From contig NC_092387.1 of NCBI RefSeq assembly GCF_030028105.1, positions 36,589,590 to 36,653,589 of the forward strand: a DNA stretch of 64,000 nt, read 5' to 3'. Below, one piece after another: positions 5,039-58,117 of the stretch; the first letter of the stretch is position 1, and the number at the start of each line of letters is the position of its first letter. Origin of the DNA: Mobula birostris (taxonomy: Eukaryota). A program made the translations under genes and the position numbers. The notes beneath the pieces are model-generated. The model was not told the origin of the DNA. It searched no databases and was given only the letters and a program-made list of their open reading frames with translations.

Positions 5039-5341
<303 letters not shown>

Positions 5342-5917
5342 TTATACAAGGGGACAAATACATCAAATAGTAGCTATCTGGTGATGACCACTCTCTTACA
5401 GTAGATAGCAATCTATCATCCTCACTCCCACCCAAGCATGAATATATAATTTATCTACCTTTGTGTGTCTCTCTCCATAGATACAGCCTGACCTGTTCAC
5501 AATCAGAATTATTATCACTATCTTATATGATGTGAAAATTGTTGTTCTGCAGCAGCAGTTCAATGCAAAGACATAAAATAACTAGCAATTACAAAACAAG
5601 TAAACAGTAAAAAAAAAGTAGTGTTTTGGGGTACATGGACTGCTCAGAAATCTGAAGGTGGAGGGGAAGAAACTGTCCCTAAATCATTGAGTGTGCATCT
5701 TGAGGCTCATGTACATCCTCCCAGACAGTAGTAATGAGAAGAGGACAGGTTCTCGATGGTGAGGGTCCTTAATGATGGATGCCACCTTCTTAAGGCAGTG
5801 CATTTTAAAGGTGTCCTCAATGGTGGGGAGGCTTGTAACTGTGACGGAGCTGGAGTCTACAATACTCTGCAGCCTCTTGCGATTCTGTGCATTGGACTAG
5901 TCAGAATACTCTCCACC

Positions 5918-6100
5918 TTATATATATTCCTTCCGGCACCGTGTGTGCCGCACCTTTCCGTTTCCTTAGCATCTGTCTGTTTTTTTTTTACAAGACCGAG
6001 TTGCCAGGTCAATAGAAAACATGCAAGGAACTGGCTGGATTTGAACTCGGGACCATTTGCCTCGAAGTCTGGTGCTGATGCCACTGCACCACTAGCTAGC
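5918..6100 (-). mobile_element. tRNA-derived SINE with 11-bp TSD, inserted in a LINE fragment
   Basis: A box TGGTGCAGTGG and B box GAGTTCAAATCC on the minus strand; TSD TACTCTCCACC at 5907-5917 and 6101-6111. Confidence 0.8.
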
Positions 6101-6877
6101 TACTCTCCACCATACGTCTAAGGAAATTTACAAGAGTCTTTGATGACATACAAAATCTCTTCCATTAGTTCCTTCTGATTTTTTAATGAAATTACTACTG
6201 AATTTATTATTGAAGGTATTTTATGGTCTCTAGTTTTGATCCTATGTGGAAATATTTTTACACCTACTCTACTAACATCCTTCATAAATCTAAAGACTTG
6301 TAAATGTTAATCTTCATTATTTCCTTATTTTCAAACACTACTTGAAACTTCCATTTTGATTGAGTTTACATAAGCTGATAGTAAATTTTATTTGATTATG
6401 CTCCCATAAAGTCTTCGGATGTGTTACACAACAAAATAAGTAGGTAATCTGGCTTCTCAAGCCCTCCATGTGAACACAGCTATATTAAATACATTATATA
6501 CATGCAAGTAGTTAGTGTAAGGTAAGGAAGGATTGAAAAATGCCATGTAAATTTATGGAGGACTTCAGTTTATGTCTAATCTGATCAAGCTCCTGTAGAG
6601 GAAAAGCCAAGGAACAGAATCACAGAAAAAAATTACAATTAAAAAAAGGCATTTATATTTTTACCAAAATTAATCTGAACAATATCTAAGAAAGGAATAT
6701 ATTTAAGCAGAACTGTCAAGAGGTGTAAAGTTTTCAGAAGGTCCAGGAAATGCAGTCAAACTGACAGCTGTGCATGGGATAACAATTTGGAAAACTGCTA
6801 CATTCAGTGTTGAACATGAATGTATCACATCCCCACGTTGTCCAGCAGATTCTGCAATTTAATCACCAATTCATATA

Positions 6878-7304
6878 CACTCCGGGGCCACTTTATTAGG
6901 TATGCCTGCTCATTAATGCAAATATCTAATCAGCCAATCATGTGGCAGCAGCTCACTGCATAAAAGCTTGCAGACATGATCAAGAGGTCCAGTTGTTATT
7001 TAGACCAAACAACAGAATGTGAAGTAGTGGATTGTGGAATGATTGTTGGTACGGTCTGTAGAGTTTACAGAGAATGGGGCAAGAAACATGGAGTGAGTGG
7101 CAGTTCTGTGGGTGAAAATGTCTTGTTAATGAGAGAGGTCAAAGGAGAATATCCAGACTGATACAAGCTGACAGCAAGGCAGCAGTGGTGTTCAGAAGAG
7201 CATCTCTGGATGCACAACATGTTGAACCTTGATGTGGATGGGCTACAGCAGCAGAAGACCACAACGGCTTCCACTCCTGTACTTAATAACATGATCACTG
7301 AGTG
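6878..7304 (+). mobile_element. Tc1-type non-autonomous element flanked by TA
   Basis: TA-CACTCCGGGGCCACTTTATTAGGTA ... TACTTAATAACATGATCACTGAGTG-TA imperfect TIRs; internal transposase-like remnant (GMIVG..RVYREW). Confidence 0.75.
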
Positions 7305-10226
7305 TATATATGCAAGTTCTTATTCTGGGAGACAAGAGACTGCAGGTGTTGGAATCTGGAACAACAATCAGCAGGAGAAACTCAGCAGGCTGAGTAACAT
7401 CTATGGGGTGGGGGGAAGGAAATGTAGGCATTTCAGATCAAAACCTTTTATAGGCATTATAAAGAACAAGGGGGGGATGCAGTGACACAGGAGCCAAAGG
7501 TGATGGGTGAACTAATACACTGGGAGAAGAATGACAGACAGATCAGCCAGTAAGTGGTGGAGATGGGAGATGGACAGTTGATGATAGATGGAGGCTGCAC
7601 CCATCTGCCTTTCACCTCTCCTCTAATGGTTCCCACTATCACCTTCTCTGTAGCTAAAAAGGTTCAGAAAATTGCTGCTGATGCCACTGGAATTTCTGTC
7701 CTTGGGTCCTTCAGCATGCTAGGATGCTGACGGAATGGTTTAAACACAATTTCAGCTAGCCTTAATTTTCTGCCCCTTTTTCCAGCAGCAGCACCAACTT
7801 CAGTGTTAAAGATGAGCACAAAGTATTAATTTAGTACTTCAGTCACACCCTCTACCCCAACTGGTGGATCTACTTCTTGCTCTCTAAACAGTCCCATTTC
7901 TCCTGTTTATTATTTACATTAGGTGATTTTTGGATTCCCTTTTACACCTATTGCCAGTCTTTTCTCATTCTCCTTCTTTTGCCATCATTTTATTTGTCAA
8001 TTCTTCTTAGAATTTTTTTATGATCAGCTGGTTCCGTCTTTGCTTTATTTTTCTCTTTCTGTTAGGACATCAATTTCCCCCTTGCCCCCACCCATTAGAA
8101 TTTACTTGAACCACTCTTCTCTTTAAAGGCCACCAATGTTCAATTAAAGGGTTTGGTCAATCTTTGAATCACTTTACAAAAAGATGATAAGATTATTAAG
8201 TCTGAACAATTAATTCTGTTTCCTGGACTGGATTGCAATACACTGAAATTGGCTCTGCCCCAACTGACTATTTCAAGTTAAAACTGTCCACATCCTTTTT
8301 GACGACTATGCTAGATCTTAAGAGAATATAATTATTGTTCCATAAATGTTCTCCCACTGATCTTTATGATCTCTGACATTTCCCAGAATCAAGTCCAGAA
8401 ATATTTCCTTCCTCATTGAGCAAGAAATGTGTTCGTTGAGGAAGTTTATGGAGCACACAAAATTCTTCCCTTTCTGCCCCTTATGAAATTATGACCCTTA
8501 TATCCGGTAAATCAAAACACTGCAGATGATGCAAACTTGAAGTAGCAAAAACTCAGTAGGTCAGGCAGCATCTGTGGAGATAGAAGGAGAGAACATTCCA
8601 GACTATGACATCAGGAGAGGAAACATTAGGAAACAATTAAAAACTCTGGATTCTTTTACTTTGCTGAAAAGGGAACAGATGAAAAGAGAAATCAGAATGT
8701 CTGCTAGGATGAAGATCAAGAGAAAAATGAATGACACAGATTGTTTTAACTGCAAAGGGATAAAGCAGTTAGTTAAAAACTGCTAATGTGTTTTGGACAG
8801 GATGTAAATTGAGAACAGAAGAGAAGCAAAATTAAACATGCTGTAACTGTGAGAAGCAGGACCCAAGAGCTTCTGGAAATCTTAAATATCAGAGATTACT
8901 GCAATGGATTTCCAGCTTCAGCAGCTTTATGAGTCCTGAGAAGTAGGTCCTCCCTAGGTTACAATGCCTGACTTATGTACATACAAATGGGTGTTTGGGG
9001 GCCAGAGGTATGCATCTCTGGCTGCTGTAGGGCTGTTGGTTTCTTCTGCCACGTGGGGAAAATTGTATTTGAATATTCAAGTTAAACACCCTACTTTAAT
9101 TACACATTGTCTTTAGTTGGCCCATGTTTATATATTTAAATATTTTGCTGGTGGCCACAATTCTGATTTGCAAACTGTTCTCATTAACGCATGTTCTCGC
9201 AGCCTCAGCGAGATCTCTATGTCTGCTTTTATTTCTTCACATTCTGATATGTAGTGTCTTCCCAGCAGTCTCATTTATTTCAGATTTTCAGCAACAGCTT
9301 TGATCTGTATCTCAGACCCAGTATGATTCTGTTTTACTTCTCTCTACTATTCTCTCTCCATTTTTCACCTCCTCCAAATGGACTAGTTGCCACCAACTTT
9401 TATGACCCCTTCTCGATGAAAGCTGTCTTGGTAACAGGAGACAGAGAGTGATGTTGGAAAGATTTTGTGAACGAAGGCCTGCGACTAGTGAAAATACTAT
9501 AGGGACTGGTGTGGAGTCCATGTTGTTTGTTAAATGCATTAACAATTTGGACACAAATTTAGGAGTTATGAAGGGTTTGCAAGGGACATGAAAATTAATG
9601 GCATTATTGGTAGTGAGGAAGGCAGACAGGTTACAGAATAATGATTAGCTGATAAGGGAAAATTAATAGCAGATGAAATTTAATCCCATCAAGGGTGAGG
9701 TGATATATTTTGTGAGGTCTAATAAGGTAGGACACACACCATGGAAGTTAGGGCCCTAATTATTAAAGAACAGCATGATCTTGGGCCACAAATGCATATA
9801 TTCCTAATGATGGCAGCATAGGCAGGTAATGTAATTAAGAAGGTATACCGGGTCTTGGCATTCGTTATCCAGGGCCCAGAAAAGAAGAACATGGTGGTCA
9901 TGTTAAAGCTTTGGTTAGGCCACAGCTGTAGGTTGTATGCAATTCTTCTCACTACTCTCTAATTATGCACCATTTTCTATACTTAAAAGTGCTAGCCACC
10001 GGGAATACTCCTGAGATCACCACCTTCTTTAACTCTTTCTTACTTTTTAAAGCCTGCCTGCAGGACCTAGTCCCTTTTTACCATCTACATTGTCCTACCA
10101 CAACTTCTGGATCAATTCCTTTCATCCACAAACAACAGGAATTCTGCAGATGCTGGAAATTCAAGCAACACACATCAAAGTTGCTGGTGAATGCAGCAGG
10201 CCAGGCAGCATCTCTAGGAAGAGGTA

Positions 10227-10264
10227 CAGTCGACGTTTCAGGCTGAGACCCTTCATCAGGACTA
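10227..10264 (-). ncRNA. Minimal type I hammerhead ribozyme motif, intact (PLE terminal repeat)
   Basis: Minus strand reads UAGUC-CUGAUGA-AGGGUCUCAGCCU-GAAA-CGUC-GACUG: stem I UAGUC/GACUG, full core, short stem II, palindromic ACGU stem III, GUC triplet. Confidence 0.8.
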
Positions 10265-10678
10265 ACTGAAGGAAGAGTTGGTAAGAGATTTGAAAGTGGG
10301 AGGGGGAGGAGGAGATCCAAAATGATAGAAGAAGACAGGAGGGGGAGGGATGGAGCCAAGAGCTGGACAGGTGATTGGCAAAAGGGATATGAGAGGATCA
10401 TGGGACAGGAGGCCCGGGGAGAAAGACAAGTGGGGGGGGGGGAACCCAGAGGATGGGCAAGGCGTATAGTCAAAGGGATAGAGGGAGAAAAAGGAGAGTG
10501 AGAGAAAGAATGTATGTATAAAAATAAATAATGGATGGGGTACGAGGGGGAGGTGGGGCATTAGCGGAAGTTAGAGAAGTCAATGTTCATGCCATCAGGT
10601 TGGAGGCTACCCTCCTATCATTTTGGATCTCCCCCTCCCCCTCCCACTTTCAAATCTCTTACTCACTCTTCCTTCAGT

Positions 10679-10716
10679 TAGTCCTGACGAAGGGTCTCGG
10701 CCTGAAACGTCAACTG
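10679..10716 (+). ncRNA. Minimal type I hammerhead ribozyme motif, near-intact
   Basis: UAGUC-CUGACGA-AGGGUCUCGGCCU-GAAA-CGUC-AACUG; core intact, one C-A mismatch at the first stem I pair. Confidence 0.65.
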
Positions 10717-10919
10717 TACCTCTTCCTAGAGATGCTACCTGGCCTGCTGCGTTCACCAGCAACTTTGATGTGTGTTCCTTTCATCCACAGACTGCTCTGC
10801 ACCATCCTGGCAAAGCTCGTTAACCCTAACAGGGAGGCAACCCGCTTTGTAGAACTACTTTTGACAACTGCAGGAACACTTGGCTGCCTGTCATCTATGA
10901 AATTCTCCTAAATGTATTT

Positions 10920-11965
10920 CTTTTGTTTAAATTTTTTATTTATTTTTATTTGGATAAGGAATTCACAAGTATCATGAACTTTTTTCACATGTATAACCTT
11001 TTCCTTTTTTTTAATATATGTATAAATCTATAATTATTTATACATTCCTAAGTACACATCGAGATGATATAAAAAGTAATTAGGCACTTAAATAGATAAT
11101 TAAGTGCAGTTGTAATTCTACTCTATTAGGCTAAGTAATGATATTAGTTGTTAAGAAAAATAGTAATAATAGTGGATTAATAATAATTTCCATACATCTC
11201 TTCTGGACCATTTCTTTCTGGTCCAAAATATTGTATGAAAGCCTATGTAACTACCATTGTAGGTGTTTATATCTTAACTCATTCATGTTTGCTCCTACCC
11301 CCAAAAAACATAATTATCCAATCCCTATGTACTTAGTTACTTAATTTTATCATTTTTCCCCTTTCCCAAATCTTTTCCTTTACTTGTGTTAATTCTCCAT
11401 TTTCCAAAAAAAGAAAAAAAAAACAGTAAACATTTGGACCAAGGGTGCTTATGTTAGCAATATTACTGCGTTGATGAGGAGAGCAGTATAAATCATTAGG
11501 AGAGTCATCTAAAGTCTGCTCACTTTGGGGTTATATATTCAATCAATTTATTCCAAATTTGATAAAATTTTTCTTTTTGAATTCTCAAAGAGTAAGTCAT
11601 CTTTTCCATTTTAAATATTTCCAAGATAATTTCGTGCCAATCTTCTAATTCTAGTGATTGATTTCTTACTTGCCGCTAAAGGGGCCTGCAGCAACTTTAT
11701 ATCTTTCTTCTGTTCAAGGAACAATACATGCCCCAAATAGAGCGTCTCAACGTTCAGAGGTATCTGGGTCTTAAGTACCTTAACTAATGTTCTATGAATA
11801 CCTTTCCAATATAAATTTAATTTAGGGCAATCCCAGAAAATATGGAAATGATTTGCCTCCTTGGAGCCGCACCTTCTCCAATACGTCACGTTTGTGTCTT
11901 TATATTTTTCCTGATATGGGGTCTTGAAGTATCTTATAATATTTTTCCAACAATGTTCCCAACTG
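10920..11965 (-). mobile_element. L1/Tx1-like LINE 3' end
   Basis: ORF 11611-11889 has the zinc-knuckle WRRCG...HFHIFWDCPKL..YW of L1-clade ORF2, followed by an AT-rich 3' UTR and A-rich tail on the minus strand. Confidence 0.75.
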
Positions 11966-12639
11966 TATTTCTAGGCTTTATTCTTCCTGCCTGTGTAGTC
12001 TGTGCAGTATGGTGCCACTTTCTGGATTGCACTCTGAACTGTCACTTGTTGGGAGACTCAAGGTGGTGTCATAGTGAAGGCTAGTCCCATCAGACATAGT
12101 TTTTCAGAGAAGATGCACAAAACAACAATTAGAAAGCTACATTTACCATCCACCTATTAATGTGTTTCTAGTGCGGCTGAAGACATTGAATTTTAACTGC
12201 AAGGTAACTATTTCATTGTCAATAAATATGTGCAACATAGAGTAGGAATTTCTTCGTAATGCAGTTACTTATGTCACTATACATCACATTTCATTTCAAC
12301 CTTCCCAACATTGAATCAGTATCATCCACATTCACAGTTATTATCACATCAGGGTGTTTAAATTTGGCTGGCAAGCAAGGTCATGGCAATGTTCTCATCA
12401 CAGAAATTCAATACAAATCCAATGAAGGCAAAAGGACAACAACATTTCTTTCTAAGAACAAATTGGGTACCATATTTCTTATAACATTGGCCGCAAAGCA
12501 TTCGAGGTGTGAGGTCACAAAATAATAACTCCAATTCAAGTTCTTTCTATCATCTTTGATAGAAAATTATTCTGTGCTCTGGAGACATTGCATTAAAGCA
12601 TATCGGGTGCAAAAAAAAACAGTATGAGGTTTGGATTTA

Positions 12640-12885
<246 letters not shown>

Positions 12886-15057: not shown

Positions 15058-15960
15058 CAGAATCAGGTTTATTATCACTGACATAGGTCATGAAATTTGC
15101 ATGAAATACATAAAAATTACTATAAAAATATGTATATCTAAATAGTGCAGAAAAAGAGAAAAGTAGACAGGTAGTGTTCATTGGTTCATGGACTATTCAG
15201 AAATCTGATGGCGGAGGGAAAGAAGCTGTTCCTAAAATGTTAAGTGCATATCTTCAGGCTTCCGTACTTTCACCTTGATGGTAGTAATGAGAAGAGGATA
15301 TGTCCTGGATGGTGAGGGTCCCTCAGGATGGATCTTGAGGAATCACCATTTGATGACATCATTGACAGTAGGGAGACTAGTGCCCATGGTGGAGCTGGCT
15401 GAGTTTACAACCCTCCACGGTATTTCCTGATCCTGTGTAACTGGCACATCCAGTGATGCAACCAATTAGAATACTTTCCACGGTACATCAGTACAAAATT
15501 GCCAGAGTCTTTGGTGGCATTCAAATCTCCTCAAACTCCTAATGAAACATAGCCACTAGCATGCCTTCTTCATAATTGCATCGATATATTAGGCCCAAGA
15601 TATCTCTTCAAAAATGTTGACACCGATTAACTTGAAAGTACTGACTCTTTCTACTGCTGATCCCTCGATGAGAATTGTTGTGTGATCTTCAAATTTCCCC
15701 TTCCTGAAGTCCACAATAAATTCCCTGGTTGTTGTACCGACACCACTCAACCAGCTGAACTATCTCACTCCCATACACCTCCTTGTCAACTTCTGATATT
15801 CTGCCAACATAGCTGTGTCATAGATAAATTTATAGATAGCATTTGAGCTGTACTTATCCACACAGTCAAAAGTGTAGAGAGAGTAGAGCAGTGGGCCAAG
15901 TATGAATCCCTGAGGAGCACCTGTGTTGACTGTCAGCAAGGAGATGTTATTTCAGATCTG
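15058..15960 (-). mobile_element. Rex1/Babar-like LINE RT and 3' end
   Basis: Reverse complement has TGAPQG..LGPLLYSLYT and ends in AATAAACCTGATTCTG-like tail; related pieces at about 5500-6170, 38060-38610 and 43450-44030. Confidence 0.7.
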
Positions 15961-16804: not shown

Positions 16805-16967
16805 AGCACAAGAGATTCTGCAGATACTGGAATTATTGAGTAACACACACAAAACACTGGATAAACTCCACAAGTCAGCAGTACCTATGGAGGGGAATAG
16901 ACAAACAACACTTTGGGCCAAGATCCTTCATGAGTCCTTATTTTATCCCCCTCCATAGGTACTGCTG
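16805..16967 (-). mobile_element. PLE terminal repeat with short inverted segment and 13-bp TSD
   Basis: TSD ACATCTAGTCACA at 16792-16804 and 16968-16980; CCCCTCCATAGGTACTGCTGAC is the reverse complement of GTCAGCAGTACCTATGGAGGGG inside the element. Confidence 0.75.
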
Positions 16968-17150
16968 ACATCTAGTCACACACTGTGGTAAACAGTTAAT
17001 CAGTTAATGGAAGGAGATCAAGAAATCCACATCACTAAGTATCGAAGATAGCTGAAATGTTTGGAGTAAACATCAGCCAGAAGTGCAGAGACAATGATCC
17101 ATTTCAGTTCTTTTTGAGGTCTCCATCTTTACAGAAGCTATTCTTTAGCC

Positions 17151-18351: not shown

Positions 18352-19709
18352 CTTTAGCCAATTTGACTTACTCCATGTAATAGTAAGGAAATGCTTACAG
18401 CACTGGTTGCTGCAAAAAGGTTATGAGCCTAGACAACATTCTGGCTTCCAATCGAGAACTGGTAGTGTTTCAAGCTAAGTTATTTGAGTACAGTTACATA
18501 TTAGTATGAACTTGACTGTGTAGAAAGTTCCATATTTATTTCCCATTCACAGGTGGTAGGATAAGTCAAATCCAGCCCACACCCTAATCATTCTACACTT
18601 AATGATTGTGCTATTAGGCAGCATTCACTGATAACTTATATACTGATGCCCAGTTTGGGTTTCCCCAGGTCCAGTCAGCACAAGATCTCATTAAATCTTT
18701 GTTCCAAGCAAGAGTGAAGAGCTGAATTCCAGAGCTGAGGACATTGAGACTGACATAACATGAAAGAAGCATTTGATTTAGTATGGCATCAGGGTGCTTT
18801 CGTATAACTGAAGTTCATGAGCAAAGGGAAAACACTTTAATGGTTGGAGGACTATCCCACGCGGTGGTGGTTGTTGGAGGTCAATCATCCCAGCCCTAGG
18901 ATATCAATGGGGGCATTGTTCAGAACAGTGTCCTCGGCCCAAATACCATCAGCTACATCATCAATGCTTTAAAGCAAGGTAGGAATTCTTGCTAACAACT
19001 GTCTAACATTCAATTCTACCTGCAAGTCACTAGAAGATGAAGCAGTTCATGCTTCCATGCCACAAGAATTACACAATATTCAAGTATGTACTTACAAGTG
19101 GCAAGTAATATTTCTGCAGGAAAAGTACCAGACAATAGCCAGCTTCTCCTGGGCACAGTCCATCTACCCTGCACGTTCAGTGGCATTTCCACTGCCAAGT
19201 CTCAGACCATCAACTGTCTTGAGATTATCTTTGATGGTATTCTATCATCACTGCTATGGCTAAATCCTGCAACTTGCTCCCTAACAGCATCGTAGAAATA
19301 CCTTCAAAAGCACTGCCCAAATTCAAGAAACCATTTCAAAAATAATTTTAAAAAATAAGTAAACAAACATCCTTTCTTGGCTTCTGAGACTTCTGCGTTT
19401 TTTTCCTTACACATTTTTGTAGAATGCCTCATTTTATATTTTGTGCTGGTTAGCTTGCATATTCTATTGTGTTTGTGATTTCTCTCTTCAGAGATTCTGC
19501 ACAACTATTCATTTGCACGTAGTGTTACCAAAGCACCTCATGCAGCCAGTAGCAAATCTCAGGGATAAAAGACTTAGTTTTACAGTGCATTGTTCCAACA
19601 GTTTATGCAAACTTCAGTTAGCCTCCTAAACGCATTATTATAACCTTTAAAATTTTAAGAGTCCACTGTTAAGAATCAAATTTCAGAGTACATACTTGAA
19701 AGTATATGA

Positions 19710-20375: not shown

Positions 20376-21559
20376 ATAGCGTGTGCAGCTTTATTTTTTT
20401 CTATCTTTGTTTTCACTTTGGCTTTCAGCGAGTATCATTGAAATAAAAATACCTGCAACTAATCAATCCAATTTTCAAAACTGTTCTTATTCATACCAAA
20501 GAACAGCATTTCGATTAAAGTATGTCTTAGGATGCTAAGTTTTATAAAGGCAAAAATTGGTTTAGTATGCACTTTGTTTTAAATATCATTGTCGAGATGC
20601 TCTCTTTTCTATCATTTTATGCTACATCTTTTATGTTGCTTGTATGGTGAACAAAATACGTTCTTGTCCAAGTTTACTTTGACTTTCATTGTCGGGACTG
20701 GAAATTACTTCCAGTTCTGCCCTGCTTTCCCACCATTGGTTATCCGTATGCCCGTCATTGTGACGTACCATCTATCTACACCTATCACAAAGTGAACACA
20801 TAATTGAACATTCAACCCGCCAATCCCTAACGTCCGAGTAAGCGTTCGAAGATCTTGTTATTAAAAACATGTTTTTCCCCTTTTTGTAGACTGCTACGAT
20901 TTGTGTCATGTTGTTTGGATAAGTTTCATAGACTCCTCAGCAGTATTGGTCGCACGGTGTTCGTTGGGAACATCCCTTTAGGGGCTAAATTCATACTGGA
21001 TTGCTTTTAGTCATATCTGTATATAGTTTTTTTAAAAAAAATACACTAAAATTATGAACTGATTCCAGTTGAATGCTGAAGAAATGCAATTCTGAAGCAA
21101 AAACAATTTATATTTCACTTCAACAATTTCGTTCAGAGAATTTGAAAGCAAACCAATTAAACACAACTGATCAGTGTTCGGAGTCGAGATTAAATCGCAA
21201 AAACACAACCGTTATAAGAATTCCTGTTTTCCGAAACCCCAATTTGTTTTAATTGTAGTTAAAACACAGAAGTATCATAATATAGTCGCAAGTATCAAAT
21301 GTACACCACACTTCACACGTTTAGAAGAACCCAGCAGGTCAAGCAGCATCTCCATGGAGAGGAATAAACGTCGACTCTATTCCCTTCCGTGGATGCTGCC
21401 TAACATGCTGAGTTCCTCCAGCATCTTGTGCGTGTTACAGCATCTAGATTTTCGGTCTTTGCGGACTAACGTACACATCAGATTTAATTCCCAATCCATT
21501 GGAAATTGAATGTCATTCGTTGACTCCGATTACGAAATACTGGTTAGCCATTGAGATTA

Positions 21560-30769: not shown

Positions 30770-31469
<700 letters not shown>

Positions 31470-37831: not shown

Positions 37832-39096
37832 GTAAGTTCTTGCTGCAAGTTGTGCTTTGTTAATCTCTCATTCATAATCTAATTTTATCATTTTAAGACA
37901 CTGCTCCTATGTACTCAAGCATAGAAGCATAGTGGCAGGATATAAAGAACCTAAATGGAGTAAACAGAAAGGCCCCTAATTCTCTTGGGCAGAGCAATGG
38001 GTCAGAAACCAATAATAGATTTCAAGTAATCAATAGAAGGATTGGACATGAAGAATTAGAATTAGGTTTATCATCGCTGTCTTGTATGACATGAAATATA
38101 TTAATTTTATAGTTCGAAGTAATTTTTACATGATTATAAATTACAAAATAGTGGAGAAAAAAAGAGAAAGGAATAGCAAGGCAGTGTTAGTGGGCCAGTC
38201 AGAAATCTGATGATGGAGGGTAATAAGCAGTTACTGAATGGTTGAGTGTGGATCTTTAGGCTCCTATACCATCTCTGATGGTAGTTACGAGAAGATGACA
38301 TTTCCCGGATGGTGGTGGTTTTCAGTGACGGATGCTGCCTTAAGACATTGACTCTTAAAGGTGTCAAAGTTCAAAGTAAATTTATTATCGAAGTACATGT
38401 ACGTCATCATATACAACCTTGAGATTAATTTCCTTGCAGGCATACTCAATAAGTTCATAGATTTATAACAATAACAACCATAACAGAATCAATGAAAGAC
38501 CACAGCAACTAGGGTGTTCAATGTGTGGAAAAGATGATGACGATGGTACTGAGGGTTGTGCCCATGAGAGTCAACAACACCCTGCAGCCTCTTGCTATCC
38601 TGTGCAGGAATTTGAAGCTACTTGAACCAGAAGTGGAGGAGGGAAATTAGCATCTTTTTTCCCCAAATGGCTGGAGTCTGGAATTCACTGCCTGAAAGAC
38701 GCTAAAAGAAGGAAGCTTTATCGGGTTTAAAGAATATTTGGATATGTATTCAAAAAGCTCTTACCTGTAGGACCATAAACCTAGATTTTTCAGACTGGTA
38801 CTAACTTAATGAGCTAAATGGTACCGTCTGTGCTGTAAATTTTCTTCTCTTTTATCTTTATTGTCCTTCCTTCTTTCAGGAAAATTGAAGGTTTGTCCTG
38901 TGGTGGACGGGGGGGGGGGGGGAATTAATATTCAAAAGTTATATTAAGTTAAAGTGAATTCTCATAGGAAAGAAAGGAAAAAAATAGCAGTCTTTACCCT
39001 CAAATGGTCAAATCAATATAGGAACCAATGTTTGATTTTAATCCTTGGGCATTGTTGAAGGTATACACTAACAAACTATGCAGACAAAAAAAGAGA

Positions 39097-39525
39097 AACA
39101 CACATAAAATGCTAGAGGAACTCAACAGGCCAGGCAGCATTTATGGAAAAAAGTAGACAGTTGAACTTCTGGGCTGAGACCCTGGAGAAAAAAGCTAAGT
39201 CAGAGTAAGAAGATGGAGAGAGGAGGAAGAAATACAAGGTCGTAGGTGATAGGTGAAACGGGGGGGGGAAGATAAAAGGGCTAGAGATGGGGGAATCTGT
39301 TAAGAGGGGACAGAAGGCCATGGAAGAAAGAGAAGGGGAAGGAGCACCAGAAGGAGGTGATGGATGGGCAAGGAGATAAGGTGAGAGATAGTGGGAATGG
39401 TGAGGAGGCTGGGGTCCATTACCGGAAGTTTGAGATATTGATCATGCCATCAGGTTGGAGGTTACCCAGTTGGAATATAAGGTGTTGCTCCTTCAACCTG
39501 AGTAGGGTAGAGGAGGTCATGGACT
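39097..39525 (-). mobile_element. PLE 3' end with 14-bp TSD
   Basis: GIY-YIG tail (..HLIF.LGNLQPDGM..) on the minus strand plus terminal repeat; TSD GACAAAAAAAGAGA at 39083-39096 and 39526-39539. Confidence 0.8.
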
Positions 39526-40659
39526 GACAAAAAAAGAGATCTGTTCAGTTTAGCTTTATTAGAATAAAGAAGGGCGTCCAGGGGATAAGTAGAGGTGAAA
39601 GTGAGAGGGGGGTGGAAGTTTGAAATCAGTGATTAGAAACTGGGTTAAGCATGTAGAAATTATGGACCTGTACTTCAAATTGATAACACAATTGGGCTCC
39701 CTAACGCAGACATGACTACTTTGTGAGCTGAGAATGTGTATGTCATTTGAAGACAATAGTACATAATTTAACCAGAAAGGTGATTTTTGAGGTTCTAAAG
39801 AGGGGGATTTAAAAAAATAATATTGTATTTTTCTATGCTTGGTTGGGAAGGGACATTGGCTTTTGGAGCGATTTGAATTGTGGTTCATATGTCACTGAGG
39901 AAGCACTCTCCTTAGAATGCTGAAAGGGCAATTTGTACTTCATCAGCTGAAGGTCTTAGAGATTATTTTCTATATGGAGACTGGTTAGGTTGATGGTAAA
40001 GTTTGTGGAGATGCTATCTTGTTGTTTTGCTTAAGGGGTGGAGCAAGGGGGATGTGGGAAGTTGATTGAGTATGGTCAAAGACCCTTTCAACATTGGTCC
40101 AGGGGATTCTTCATTTAAGGAGAAAGGATGGCAATGGTTGGGAAGGTGCTGTTGTAAAAGGTGTGACGAGGATGGAGAATTTAGATGAATGGAACAGAGC
40201 TGTGACCAATGGACATGAGGTGGTAGAAGTCAAGTGTGAGCAGGTGCGTTAGAGTGAATTGGCTTACATGAGATAATGGTTGACGAGCTGATGCATTGTA
40301 ATGGCAATGCAGGTTTTGGGGAAAAGTGAGAAAGAATCAGTAGGTCCAGTAGTGAAAGAATCAGTAGTGAAGTTAACAAATTTCACATCATATGCCAGTG
40401 ATAATAAACCTGATTCTGATGATAAGCTTCTTTCTGATCTCTGGCAAGGAAGCGGACCCCATTTATTCTGTATTGCTGCAAATGTTTCATTATATGCATC
40501 TCTCTTTTAACAAACGTAGGCCTTTTGTGAATCTGCTGCACTCTGATTGCTCAATGAACTAGTCAGGTTTAATTATTAGCAATGCAAGAATCCTTTTAAG
40601 TGTAATAATTGTGTAATAAGTGTAATAACAATCTGATTCAGAAGATAAACCATCAAAGA

Positions 40660-41965
40660 TGTGCAATCGTGTTTGACTTAGTTATCCGGACTGTTAAGGG
40701 CCTAGTAAGGGGGATATGTATATTGTTCAGGTAAGTTTCCTGAGTCAATATACAGAGGGCTCTGCTCGAGATGGTGCAATAATGAACAAGGATGGGCAAG
40801 TACCTGAAGTGAAAGTTTGGCTTTAGTGATCGTAATTCTTAGTTTTAAGATAGTGAATTAAAGAATAGGACAGGTTCACAGATTTAAGTCCTAAACTGGA
40901 GCAGGGCTACTTTTGGGAAAATTAGACTAGATCTGGCAGAGCCCAATTGAATGTGCTTGTTTGAAGGGAAAGGAACAAATGGCAAATGGGAGGTTTTTAA
41001 GTGTCCAGGAGAGCATTTTCCTGTTAGGGTGGAGGGCAAACCTGAAGTGTTTAGGGAATCTTAGCTGACAAATGATATTGATGCTTTTGTAAGAAAAATG
41101 AGGTAGCATATATTGGGTTTAGGAAGTCAAGATTGAGCCAATCTCTTGAATAGTATAAAAAGATTAGGAATACTCGTGAGAGGAAAATCAGGAGAGTAAA
41201 GCGAGGGTATAAGCTAGATCTGGCAAGTAAGGTTAAGGAAAATGGCAAGCAGTTCTTTAAATATATTAGAAGAGTGGTTAGGGAGAAAGTTGGGTCTCCT
41301 GAGAGATTATCATGGCTGCCTATGTTTTGAGCCACAGGGATGGATGGGATTTCTTCTTGTTGTTTACTAATGAGAACACCATGAGATAAAGAAAACAAAT
41401 AGAAATATTTTGGAGGACAGTCATATTGCCAGAGAGTGCATTAAGGTGGCTACATCTCTAGGATCTGACTGAGTGTATCCTTAGACTTTGTGGGAGTCTA
41501 GAGAGGAAATTACAGAGGCCTTTGGGAAGGTATGTGCTTCATAATGATTCACTAGTAAAATTCCTGAGTACTAAAAGGAGATTAATATTGTTCTGCCAGC
41601 ATTTGAATAGATAGTCTAATTAGGATGAGTCAGCATGACTGCCCTTGGGAAGTTGTACTTGATGAACGTTTTAGAGTCCTTTGAAGAGGTAATCAAAAAG
41701 TTGTATGAGGGTAGGACAGTGCATGTTGTCTCTTTGGACTATAGCAAGAGCTTTGACAAGGTCCTGCATGATAGGCTGGTTTGGAAAGTTAGGTCCCATG
41801 GAATTCAAGGAGAGATAGCTCGGTGGATTCAAAATTGCCTTGGAGGCTACAAGCAGAGGGTGGTGGTTGAAGGTTGTTATTTGGAATGGTGACCAGTAAC
41901 CAATGATGTTGCCACAGAAGTCGGAATTGGGACCCTTGTAATTAATGTTTTATATAAGATTTGGA
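40660..41965 (+). mobile_element. CR1-type LINE ORF2 fragments
   Basis: ORF 41635-41892 (FEEV.K...EGR.V.VV.LDYSKSFDKV.H.RL..K...HGI.G....WI.N.L....QRVVV.G) is CR1 reverse transcriptase. Confidence 0.85.
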
Positions 41966-45885: not shown

Positions 45886-46944
45886 CCTCAACAATGGAAA
45901 AACGTATTACGGTTGAGTGTCCAGTTTGCAAAACACATCTACAGTATTTAATCCAGAAAGGTGAATCTTAACCTGCTACTTGTTTTTTTTAGTTCTCCAT
46001 TTCACTTCCACTCTAATCAGTTTGTTTTTAGCCTCAACATTCTCACTTCATGGTTTTGCTTTCTGTTCTTGTTCATTCCCCCTTTGCTACATCCCTGGAT
46101 AGTTTAGCTACAATTAAAAAGCCATCCTGCTCTAATTTGTGTCATAATGCTTCTCTCGGTGTCACCCCATCAGCAATCCCTTTGTTCTCTCTATTCGTCT
46201 ATTTTTCTCTACAGATTAGTTGTTGGCCAGAAGGAACCACAATCTACAAATCAATAGATTGGGATTAATCAAGGACAGGGGGTGAGCAGAAATGTTGAAC
46301 AACATTGGTTGTAGCCCTGGACTAGAGCTAGTAAGAAGGTGACCCAGGTAGGTCAGGTGACTTTAAGGCAATGGGATGGAGGTCCATCAGTTCAACTGAT
46401 GAGGAACACTATAAGATTCAGGAGCTCCAGACATGTAAGGGAGACAACTCTCCAGAGACCAGCCATCACGGAAGTGGAGGATCCCACGGATATGTGGAGA
46501 TTGTGACCGTGAGGAATCCCTGGTCAGCATAGATTCCTTTCCCGGGTAATGCCTTTTCTTTTCATTGTTCATGGAAGGTCAGGGAATTCTAGTGGGTGTG
46601 CACACATGTAGTTAATTTGTGAACCCACGTGCTTTTAAGTTGAGACATTGAAGGCTACCTGTCAGTAAATACAGATTCTCTCTGTGCCTCTGATCATTAT
46701 TACAAGTATATTGAATATTTTAGCATTTCGTATTTCTGATGGAATGGAGGAACATGGATGATACACGGGAGGTGGACATTTATTATAAATTGGCATCGGG
46801 TTTGGCACAAAATACGATACAGACAGGAAATAGATACATGGCTCCTATGGGTAGAAAATAGATTCATGGCTCCTGCACTCATATTGCACTATTTATTTTT
46901 TGTAACTTATGTCTTGCACTGTAGCTCTGCTGTGAAACAATAAA

Positions 46945-47535
46945 CTTCATCCACTCCATCCGCCAAAAGTAGAACTTCCCGGTGGCCAAGCATTTTAATT
47001 CTGATTCCCATTCCTATTCTGACATGTCGGTCCATGGTCTCCTTTTGTGCCAAGACGAGGCCACCCTCAGGGTGGAGAAACAACACCTTATGAATTCCGT
47101 CTGGGTAGCCTCCAAACTGATGGCATGAATATTGATTTCTTCTTCCGGTAATAACTTTTTCTTTTTCCCAATCTTGCCTCTTACCTCTTCTCACCTCTTC
47201 CCTTTCTCCTCTCCTGTCAGATCCCTTCTTCCCCAGCCCTTTACCTTTACCTGGATTCACCTATCACCTTCCAGCTATCCTCCTTTCCCAACACCCCCCT
47301 CCACCTTTTTATTCTGGCGTCTTTCCCCATTCCTTTCCAGTCCTGAAGAAGTCTCTCGGACCGAAACATCGACTGTCTATCCCTTTCAGTAGATACTGCC
47401 AGACCTGCTGAGTTCCTCCAGCATTTTGTGTGTGTTGCAACGTTTAATGATTAACACATTCAAGATGCTGGAGAAACTCAGCTGGTCAGGCAGCATCTGT
47501 GGAAAGAAATGCACAGTCGACGTTTCGGGGGAGAC
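46945..47535 (+). mobile_element. PLE 3' end (GIY-YIG C-terminus, UTR, terminal repeat) plus an inverted terminal-repeat fragment
   Basis: Translates FPVAKHFNSDSHSYSDMSVHGLLLCQDEATLRVEKQHL...RLGSLQ.DGMNIDF; hammerhead-like CAGTC-CTGAAGA...GAAACATC-GACTG at 47338-47375; inverted fragment at about 47453-47530. Confidence 0.85.
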
Positions 47536-53809: not shown

Positions 53810-55120
53810 GGGACTTGTTGCCTACTTGGAACAGTCTCTGATCCATACCTCCTTTTACGTCGCTGACTCCTTTGGTACTGCTTCTCGCACCTGTGCTGAA
53901 CTCATCTATTTTATCACCTTTGCCTCTAACTTCCACCCCACGCTCAAATTCATGTGGACCATTTCCAGAACCACTCTCTTAGACTCCATCTTAGAGAACA
54001 AAGTACCCATTGACTCCCACAGCTACCTTGACTATATCTTGTAAGGCTGCCATTCCTGTCTCCCAATTTCTCTATGTCTGCTGCATCTGCTCTCAAGATG
54101 AGGCCTTCCATTACAGAATGTCTGAAATACTGACCTTTTTCAGGAAATGGAGGTTCCTGTTTGCTGTGATTCATGAAGCCCTTTCTGATGGCCTCTGTTT
54201 CTTGGACTTCTGCACTCGCCCCACCTCCCTCCAATTGGAACAGAGATAGAGTTCCACTTCTCCTCACCTCTCACTCCCATTAGCCATTGTGTCCAGCTCA
54301 TCCATCCTCAGTCATTTCCACAACTGCATTGTTATCCCACTACCAGCCTCATCCCTTCCCCACCTCTTTCTGCTTTCTGTAGGACTGCACCCTACACCAC
54401 TCCGTAGTCCACTTATCCCTCCCTTATCCCTGGCATATTCCTGTATAATTCCAAGAGTTGTAATGCTTATTCTTATACCTCCCTCCTCTCTTTCATCTGG
54501 GGATGTTAAACTGCCCTTCCAGGTGAGACAAAGGTTCCCATATACCTCTTTCAACTTCATTCACTGCGGATAGCCTCCCAGTGTGGTCTCCTCTACATCA
54601 GCGACACCAAGCACAGACTGGAAACCAACTTGCAGAGCAGCTGCATTCATCTTGAGCTCTCATTTGAAGGCCATTTCAATTCCTGTTTTCATTTCCATGC
54701 TGAACTGTCCATGCTCGGCCTTCTCCACTGAGTGAGACCCAACACAAACTAGATGAGCAACTTATATTCCCTTATAGTGTCTACAACCCAATAGCATGAG
54801 CATTGAGTTTCCCAGTTTTAGGTAACCAATCTCTCTGGTGTGCTTTCCCCCTTTTCCCACCCTCCCTCTCTCCTCCTCTCCTTCTCCCTTATCATCACCA
54901 CTCTCCATGCCCCACCCCAGCTCCCACCATCTCTTCCTCCCTCCTTCCCCTTCCCTGTTGTTTCATTGGCTTCTTTTCACCACCTCCCCTCCCTTTTTTA
55001 TACTGACCATCTCTCCTCTCCACACATACAGGGTTCTGATCCATAACATTGACAGTTTCTCCCCGTGTACTCTTCAGCAAATGTTGCTCAGCCCATCGAA
55101 TTTCTCCAGCAGATTAGTTG
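53810..55120 (+). mobile_element. Decayed Penelope-like retroelement (RT + GIY-YIG remnants + terminal repeat)
   Basis: Fragments FASNFHPTLKF.WTIS, DSHSYLDY, CKAAIPVSQFL...ICSQDEAFH, FQVRQRF, QCGLLYISDTKHRL, with frameshifts and stops. Confidence 0.85.
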
Positions 55121-57881: not shown

Positions 57882-58117
57882 CAACACACACAAAATGCTG
57901 GAGGAACTCAGCAGGCCAGGCAGCATCTATGGAAAAAAAGTACGGTTGAAGTTTCAGGCTGAGACCCTTCATCAATTCTGTAATCCTGATGAAGGGTCTC
58001 TTCCCAAAACGTTGACTGTACTCTTCTCTGTCGATGCTACCTGGCCTGCTGATTTCCTCCAGCATTTTGTGTGTGGTGCTTGGATTTCCAGCATCTGCAG
58101 ATTTTCTCTTGTTTGTG
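57882..58117. mobile_element. PLE terminal-repeat inverted pair (fold-back) with 14-bp TSD
   Basis: About 90-bp inverted arms around a short spacer, both with degenerate hammerhead cores; TSD GTGGGTCAC(G/C)CTGA at 57868-57881 and 58118-58131. Confidence 0.85.

Follow-up and report, generated by a model that had tools for sequence, protein, structure and literature searches.

A probably inert minimal hammerhead motif from a Penelope-like element in intron 2 of Mobula birostris HIF1AN

HIF1AN lies on the minus strand of the window, a 64,000-nucleotide stretch of the Mobula birostris genome (NC_092387.1, positions 36,589,590 to 36,653,589). Exon 2 (12885-12641) matches human FIH (E 6e-40), exon 4 matches Cupin_8, and the limits of intron 2, read from 12640 to 5280, are set by GT-AG boundaries. 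The gene extends beyond the low end of the window, and its later introns fall outside it. A hammerhead motif is carried on the same strand about 2.4 kb into intron 2, with the 3' splice site roughly 4.9 kb downstream. The exon matches and the GT-AG limits bear out the sense orientation that a first reading of the locus, made from the letters alone (the sequence-only reading), had given it. The motif sits in a 644-bp insertion (10131-10774) with an identical 15-bp target-site duplication on both sides (Table 1).

Table 1. Features of the HIF1AN intron 2 insertion and of the surrounding gene, in window coordinates.
Feature	Position	Strand	Remarks
HIF1AN exon 3	5131..5279	minus	
HIF1AN intron 2, 7361 nt	5280..12640	minus	GT-AG boundaries; holds the PLE insertion
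Target-site duplication, left copy, 15 bp	10116..10130		
Main arm: ORF end, pyrimidine-rich 3' region, hammerhead, ~100 nt of 3' end	10131..10611	minus	5'-truncated PLE
3' extension, 38 nt, main arm only	10131..10168	minus	putative PLE 'tail'
Minimal type I hammerhead motif, without helix III	10227..10264	minus	predicted cut between 10232 and 10231
Stem I, 3' arm	10227..10231	minus	
G12-A15.1 (10239-10236), palindromic C15.2-G16.2 (10235-10234), U16.1-C17 (10233-10232)	10232..10239	minus	
Unpaired A (10252) after A9, then stem II	10240..10252	minus	4 pairs (2 wobble), 4-nt loop
Core C3-A9	10253..10259	minus	
Stem I, 5' arm	10260..10264	minus	partner 10231-10227 (4 Watson-Crick pairs + 1 wobble)
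Last 16 codons + stop of element ORF	10561..10611	minus	C-terminus match to P0007, P0012
Inverted duplicate arm	10612..10774	plus	9 differences in 163 nt vs main arm
Second hammerhead motif, antisense to HIF1AN	10679..10716	plus	core 12/12, stem I mismatch at 10712
Target-site duplication, right copy, 15 bp, identical	10775..10789		
HIF1AN exon 2	12641..12885	minus	FIH match
HIF1AN exon 1, coding part	30938..31066	minus	putative start codon

Read from 10264 to 10227, the minus strand presents 12/12 fixed positions of the hammerhead core in type I order, as first proposed, and the cut position predicted at the outset agrees with this layout. Stem I, claimed at 4-5 bp, comes to five pairs, one of them a wobble, with pair probabilities of 0.55-0.99 when the bare motif is folded. 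The short stem II of the sequence-only reading stands at four pairs and is refined by an unpaired A after A9 and by two G.U pairs. The register with the extra A has pair probabilities of 0.87-0.97, and an A10.1-U11.1 register was dropped at 0.03. In both the HIF1AN-intron motif and its twin arm, the 10.1-11.1 pair is G.U, not the usual G-C. The proposed loopless palindromic stem III survives as a palindrome but not as a stem: just two nucleotides (CG) lie between A15.1 and U16.1, and stem III is absent in the monomer. The plus-strand motif of the inverted arm (10679-10716) lies 415 bp from the minus-strand motif, and its broken stem I pair adjoins the cut site.

The descriptor search suggested in the sequence-only reading returns a single match in the 64 kb on both strands, at 10264 to 10227, with a type I descriptor that was drawn up after the motif had been seen. 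The companion search of Rfam gave nothing of the kind: hammerhead families are absent among the 17 covariance matches in the window and among the 13 matches in 10131-10790, with E allowed up to 10 in both scans. This absence, together with a folding z-score of only -0.99 for the 38-mer motif, favors reading the motif as a chance match to the hammerhead core. The shuffle control argues the other way, as any descriptor match arises in just 4/200 dinucleotide shuffles (mean 0.025), and so do the position of the motif and its relatives, considered below.

The insertion is recognizable as a Penelope-like element (PLE). The hammerhead lies about 300 nt past the ORF stop and about 100 nt before the element 3' end, the terminal-repeat position at which PLE hammerheads are described, and this location weighs against chance. 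Only the last 16 codons of the element ORF remain in the insertion; the 16 residues are identical to the C-terminus of P0007 at 14/16 positions and to that of P0012 at 10/15. P0012 matches RVT_1 (E 5.6e-19) and, below the Pfam cut-off, GIY-YIG (E 0.008), and P0007 has a weak GIY-YIG match (E 0.002) that is likewise below the cut-off. The ORF remnant of another family copy (46973-47086) retrieved 18 proteins in a HMMER search, unlike a fast homologue search with the 51-aa endonuclease remnant, which found nothing. Nine of the 18 retrieved proteins were scanned against Pfam; two of these are without a Pfam match, and three are host genes or unrelated proteins with an embedded or chance match. 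A Cys-rich CX2-5CxxC linker precedes the endonuclease in the relative P0004, a region missing from the insertion, and this linker may point to the Neptune or Nematis clade rather than Poseidon. Longer decayed PLE ORF remnants occur elsewhere in the window at 53814-54822 (+), 46940-47136 (+) and 39422-39541 (-), each upstream of a family 3' end.

The architecture of the insertion agrees with this assignment. An inverted 5'-truncated copy and a one-sided tail of 30-40 bp are described as typical of PLE insertions (PMC8557442). The HIF1AN insertion shows both hallmarks: next to the main arm stands a 5'-truncated arm in inverted orientation, and a 38-nt tail occurs on the main arm only. The insertion structure, the ORF tail and the published features of minimal hammerheads thus uphold the claim of a Penelope-type minimal hammerhead. 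Judged from its sequence context, the motif is not a host element but the end of a 5'-truncated Penelope-like retroelement.

Family matches number 27 in the window, and nearly all are decayed. Core, stems and palindrome are all intact only at 10264 to 10227, as had been claimed of a sole intact copy, with the qualification that three other copies, the plus-strand motif at 10679-10716 among them, retain a 12/12 core alongside a broken stem or palindrome. Within the window's part of HIF1AN, eight family matches are sense and five antisense, and 0/7 of the other sense copies there are intact. A sense copy in HIF1AN intron 1 (29411-29328, minus strand) has a 12/12 core and 3/5 stem I pairs; situated 19 kb upstream of the motif, it is the nearest thing to a dimer partner. 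In one DNA run, 153,845 contigs fall on 812 nt while the flank stays at single-contig depth, so the PLE family is very abundant; contig depth is not usable as copy number. The analysis covered 4/23 runs, all of them contigs, which carry no information on ends, strand or level. DNA pattern scans for further family copies gave 0 and 3 matches in metagenomes and 0 in viral sequences. Similarity in the three metagenome matches is confined to 21-34 nt about the pattern, and they were discarded as accidental or of no use.

Several other features of the window concern the same family or other repeats. Four more inverted family pairs lie at 750-853, 21324-21418, 47361-47528 and 57882-58078. All are head-to-head except the tail-to-tail pair near 47450, and a 9-bp target-site duplication may flank the pair near 57970. 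The head-to-head junction at 21366-21375 is centred on a palindrome spanning the predicted cut site. Both arms at first seemed to start precisely at the cut site, but the junction is ambiguous: it may be the fossil of a cleaved template or, more simply, the product of a template switch at a 4-nt microhomology, which also accounts for a missing base. The junction was therefore set aside as evidence of cleavage. In 10/27 aligned segments, homology stops on the 5' side at a point from -39 to -3 relative to the cut site, within the hammerhead or shortly ahead of it; these limits may reflect a truncation hot spot or upstream subfamily differences. The 3' ends of copies cluster at about +62 to +68 and at +97 to +100 from the cut site. 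A hairpin at 16868-16974 has a weak microRNA-model score (E 1.6e-4, well below the gathering threshold); the hairpin coincides in part with a family copy and resembles a further small inversion. Another dispersed repeat is present in three copies (5498-5891, 15058-15439 and 38057-38606), and weak reverse transcriptase matches at 9454-9735, 15844-15930, 18867-18977 and 41761-41934 are probably decayed LINE fragments.

Comparison across the family bears on whether the motif is a real ribozyme. The conservation set consists of 13 of the 25 other family matches, chosen by eye for covering the motif. The majority base across these copies equals the core at 12/12 positions, and the unpaired A between 9 and 10.1 is present in 12 of the 13. 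Position 11.1 is C, which makes a G-C pair, in 8/13 other copies, unlike the G.U of the HIF1AN-intron copy; C at this position makes up 22-39% of contig depth, in a sampling biased towards the HIF1AN-intron copy. Of 67 variable positions in contigs at least 88% alike, 40 were listed; three of these 40 belong to the motif, at N7, loop II and 11.1, and none to the core. Loose contig ends pile up at 10226-10228 and 10261-10263, that is, at both motif edges, so the subfamilies have the motif in common and diverge on either side of it. A motif shared in this way points to selection in the active elements, and the family motif is likely a genuine hammerhead. The full agreement of the majority base with the core and the break in subfamily homology at both edges, added to the shuffle control and the location within the element, largely refute a chance match, to which we give almost no credence.

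Evidence that the HIF1AN-intron copy itself has been preserved is another matter. The match to the majority in the 13 other copies is 122/151 (0.81) for the core, a figure lowered by five copies that appear cut within the motif, vs 522/633 (0.82) for the tail, and there is no excess conservation of the motif between the arms, which differ at 3/38 positions in the motif vs 6/125 outside it. Much of the loss in family copies falls at CpG sites. The sense arm kept all essential positions and the antisense arm lost one, a pattern that fits selection, but chance would give it too, roughly 1 time in 4 by a hand count of CpG outcomes. In contigs of two organisms the left flank continues 22 nt into the element, with 0 and 6 differences in 353 nt. 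This overlap is a hint that the insertion is common to both, at a length under the 31-letter bridging rule and short of the motif. Taken from the sequence, there is no sign that the HIF1AN-intron copy is under selection.

These observations also bear on co-option of the motif as a cis regulator of the HIF1AN pre-mRNA, in the manner of amniote intronic ribozymes or CPEB3. The motif is in sense orientation with an intact core, the 3' splice site follows some 4.9 kb downstream, and an insertion possibly common to two organisms would lend co-option some weak encouragement. Yet the motif belongs to a mobile family with many copies, has no helix III and is predicted to be sequestered (see below). 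The arms differ in the motif no less than elsewhere, and the balance of 8 sense to 5 antisense matches in the window's part of the gene also counts against a host function. Co-option is, in our estimate, very improbable.

The inverted arm has a strong predicted influence on how the motif can fold. In HIF1AN pre-mRNA, the complement of 10612-10774 is transcribed ahead of the motif, and the inverted arm is predicted to form a hairpin of about 163 bp with 10331-10169. The fold of the whole insertion reaches -375.7 kcal/mol (z -24.8 against 20 shuffles). Motif bases are predicted to pair with this earlier-made arm at P 0.97, and therefore the hammerhead fold is costly, with a predicted penalty of 68-69 kcal/mol for forcing stems I and II. 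The hammerhead fold has a probability of about 1e-48 with the inverted arm and about 2e-4 without it. These values come from equilibrium nearest-neighbour folding with no tertiary or Mg2+ terms, an omission that makes the hammerhead look less stable than it is, though by some kcal/mol rather than 68. The plus-strand motif is predicted to be sealed likewise (P 0.95). A precedent comes from an engineered system, in which complementary sequence placed upstream is reported to have prevented the ribozyme from assembling, both in vitro and in vivo (PMC2817708).

Stepwise folding adds a temporal dimension. Pairing reaches 0.92 at a nascent 3' end of 10280, ahead of motif emergence. At 3' ends 10315 and 10300, pairing with the true arm is only 0.06-0.18, the upstream arm being held by the spacer. 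The purine-rich upstream arm and the pyrimidine-rich spacer pair at -126.7 kcal/mol, and this arm-spacer pairing is a possible kinetic trap. Through such a trap, and with a trans partner or the element protein, a small share of nascent HIF1AN transcripts might be cut without any selected role. The competing spacer, the complete core and stem I, the high abundance of the family and the protein-assisted cleavage shown for an Anolis PLE (PMC11167929) are all in keeping with partial cleavage. However, the long duplex is predicted to dominate from 10280 on, and the four-bp intermolecular helix III is weak at -1.7 kcal/mol. The 10.1-11.1 pair is G.U instead of G-C, and the class is described as slow even as a designed dimer (PMC4209133). 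Two bare motifs joined in a double hammerhead are predicted at -11.5 kcal/mol vs -21.6 kcal/mol for the free dimer. Partial cleavage strikes us as quite improbable.

The hairpin could matter to the host in its own right. Long intronic inverted repeats are editing substrates, and the near-perfect hairpin of about 163 bp predicted in this pre-mRNA would be of that kind. Any host effect might then stem from the long dsRNA, through A-to-I editing or splicing kinetics, and not from the ribozyme. The nearest splice sites, however, are 1.9 kb and 4.9 kb away, and the presence of four other inverted family pairs in the window makes such hairpins look tolerated. An effect of this sort is compatible with the explanation that we prefer, and we regard it as unlikely.

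The preferred explanation, which we consider very probable, is that a 5'-truncated PLE with an inverted arm supplied the motif as its hammerhead, and that the motif is likely inert owing to its predicted pairing with this arm in the pre-mRNA. In an active element, the ACGU palindromes of two motifs would join into a shared helix III to process the element RNA; alternatively, a single motif would be folded by the element's protein. Both possibilities are drawn from the literature on related elements. The insertion itself, to judge by its structure, would go back to a reverse transcription event that left it 5'-truncated and inverted. During host transcription, the complement of the inverted arm would emerge first, and the hairpin would form before the motif is complete. 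The insertion would then be carried passively in intron 2, sealed in the hairpin and spliced out. The HIF1AN-intron copy may be intact simply as one of the least decayed, its two likely derived changes lying on tolerant positions, rather than through selection. The suggestion of a likely self-cleaving element in the oxygen-sensor pre-mRNA is not supported: the class is reported to need a dimer or a protein (PMC4209133; PMC11167929), none of the seven other sense copies in the window's part of the gene is intact, sequestration by the inverted arm is predicted, and selection has left no sign.

As it stands, the HIF1AN-intron motif matters little, being one more copy in a genome with very many. 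It does offer a caution: an intact sense core is insufficient, and the neighbouring inverted arm decides whether a motif can fold. Were HIF1AN pre-mRNA cut, the oxygen sensor FIH would be under a control of transposon origin, a possibility that the evidence disfavors. A broader idea is that head-to-head PLE insertions contain a built-in antisense lock, and that intact sense-intronic hammerheads survive mainly inside locked insertions. Host transcription of either strand would yield the antisense arm ahead of the hammerhead and so seal it. Should hammerheads outside a lock sometimes cut host pre-mRNA, intact sense intronic copies would be expected mainly in such locks. A genome-wide pattern of this kind, if true, would be an indirect genomic test of RNA cutting by PLE minimal hammerheads in vivo. 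It would also amount to genomic evidence of ribozyme action in vivo, with the inverted structure lowering the cost of insertion. We put the lock forward as a speculation that will probably prove wrong.

PLE hammerheads reportedly cleave as dimers, a 2017 result of Lunse et al. according to a review (PMC6765202). The motif has its closest counterpart in the minimal hammerheads of PLEs. These are described (Cervera and De la Pena 2014, PMC4209133) as type I ribozymes with no helix III or loop 3, a palindromic 15.2-16.2, a helix I of 4-5 bp and an unpaired nucleotide between 9 and 10.1, features that the HIF1AN-intron motif shares. Like it, they are reported from PLE terminal repeats, mostly in truncated copies and sometimes as opposite-strand pairs, and minimal hammerheads on opposite strands 100-700 bp apart are described in PLEs (PMC4209133). 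The monomer of this class is given as inactive and the dimer as weak (PMC4209133), and two reviews concur (PMC6765202; PMC6155905). Two differences stand out. Helix II of the HIF1AN-intron motif has 4 bp with two wobbles, unlike the 7-8 bp of the Schistosoma minimal hammerheads (PMC4209133), and the G10.1-C11.1 pair, which is highly conserved in the published consensus (PMC4209133) without being part of the search descriptor, is present in the family but is G.U in the HIF1AN-intron copy. Cartilaginous fishes do not appear to be among the hosts named in that study (PMC4209133). Literature searches for a HIF1AN ribozyme and for shark or ray PLE hammerheads, among mostly open-access papers, gave no description of this locus.

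The Poseidon element PAc of Anolis carolinensis also carries a hammerhead in its PLE terminal repeat (Frangieh et al. 2024, PMC11167929). It is reported to have two preferred 3' ends or RT start sites and an optional tail (PMC11167929), and copies in the window have two 3'-end clusters. Cleavage by the Anolis hammerhead is reported to have required the protein of its element, and RNA-seq gave no ends at the cleavage site (PMC11167929). Protein assistance has thus been shown for PAc (PMC11167929), whereas the HIF1AN-intron motif is known from sequence alone. Non-LTR retrozymes, reported in one chondrichthyan genome, share a type I hammerhead of PLE origin (bioRxiv 10.64898/2026.07.22.740005). 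Retrozymes are described as direct tandem units with a hammerhead in each, such that dimers are possible (bioRxiv 10.64898/2026.07.22.740005), whereas the motifs of the HIF1AN insertion are inverted, so that a transcript contains a single motif together with the antisense of that motif. The surroundings of the insertion contain no direct repeat of the motif, which places the insertion outside the retrozymes. Like the amniote HH9/HH10 and CPEB3 ribozymes, the motif is a sense ribozyme motif in the intron of a protein-coding gene. HH9/HH10 and CPEB3 are single-locus, conserved and active as monomers. Unlike them, the HIF1AN-intron motif is a high-copy mobile relic without helix III, and is an ordinary further member of the RNA class described in 2014.
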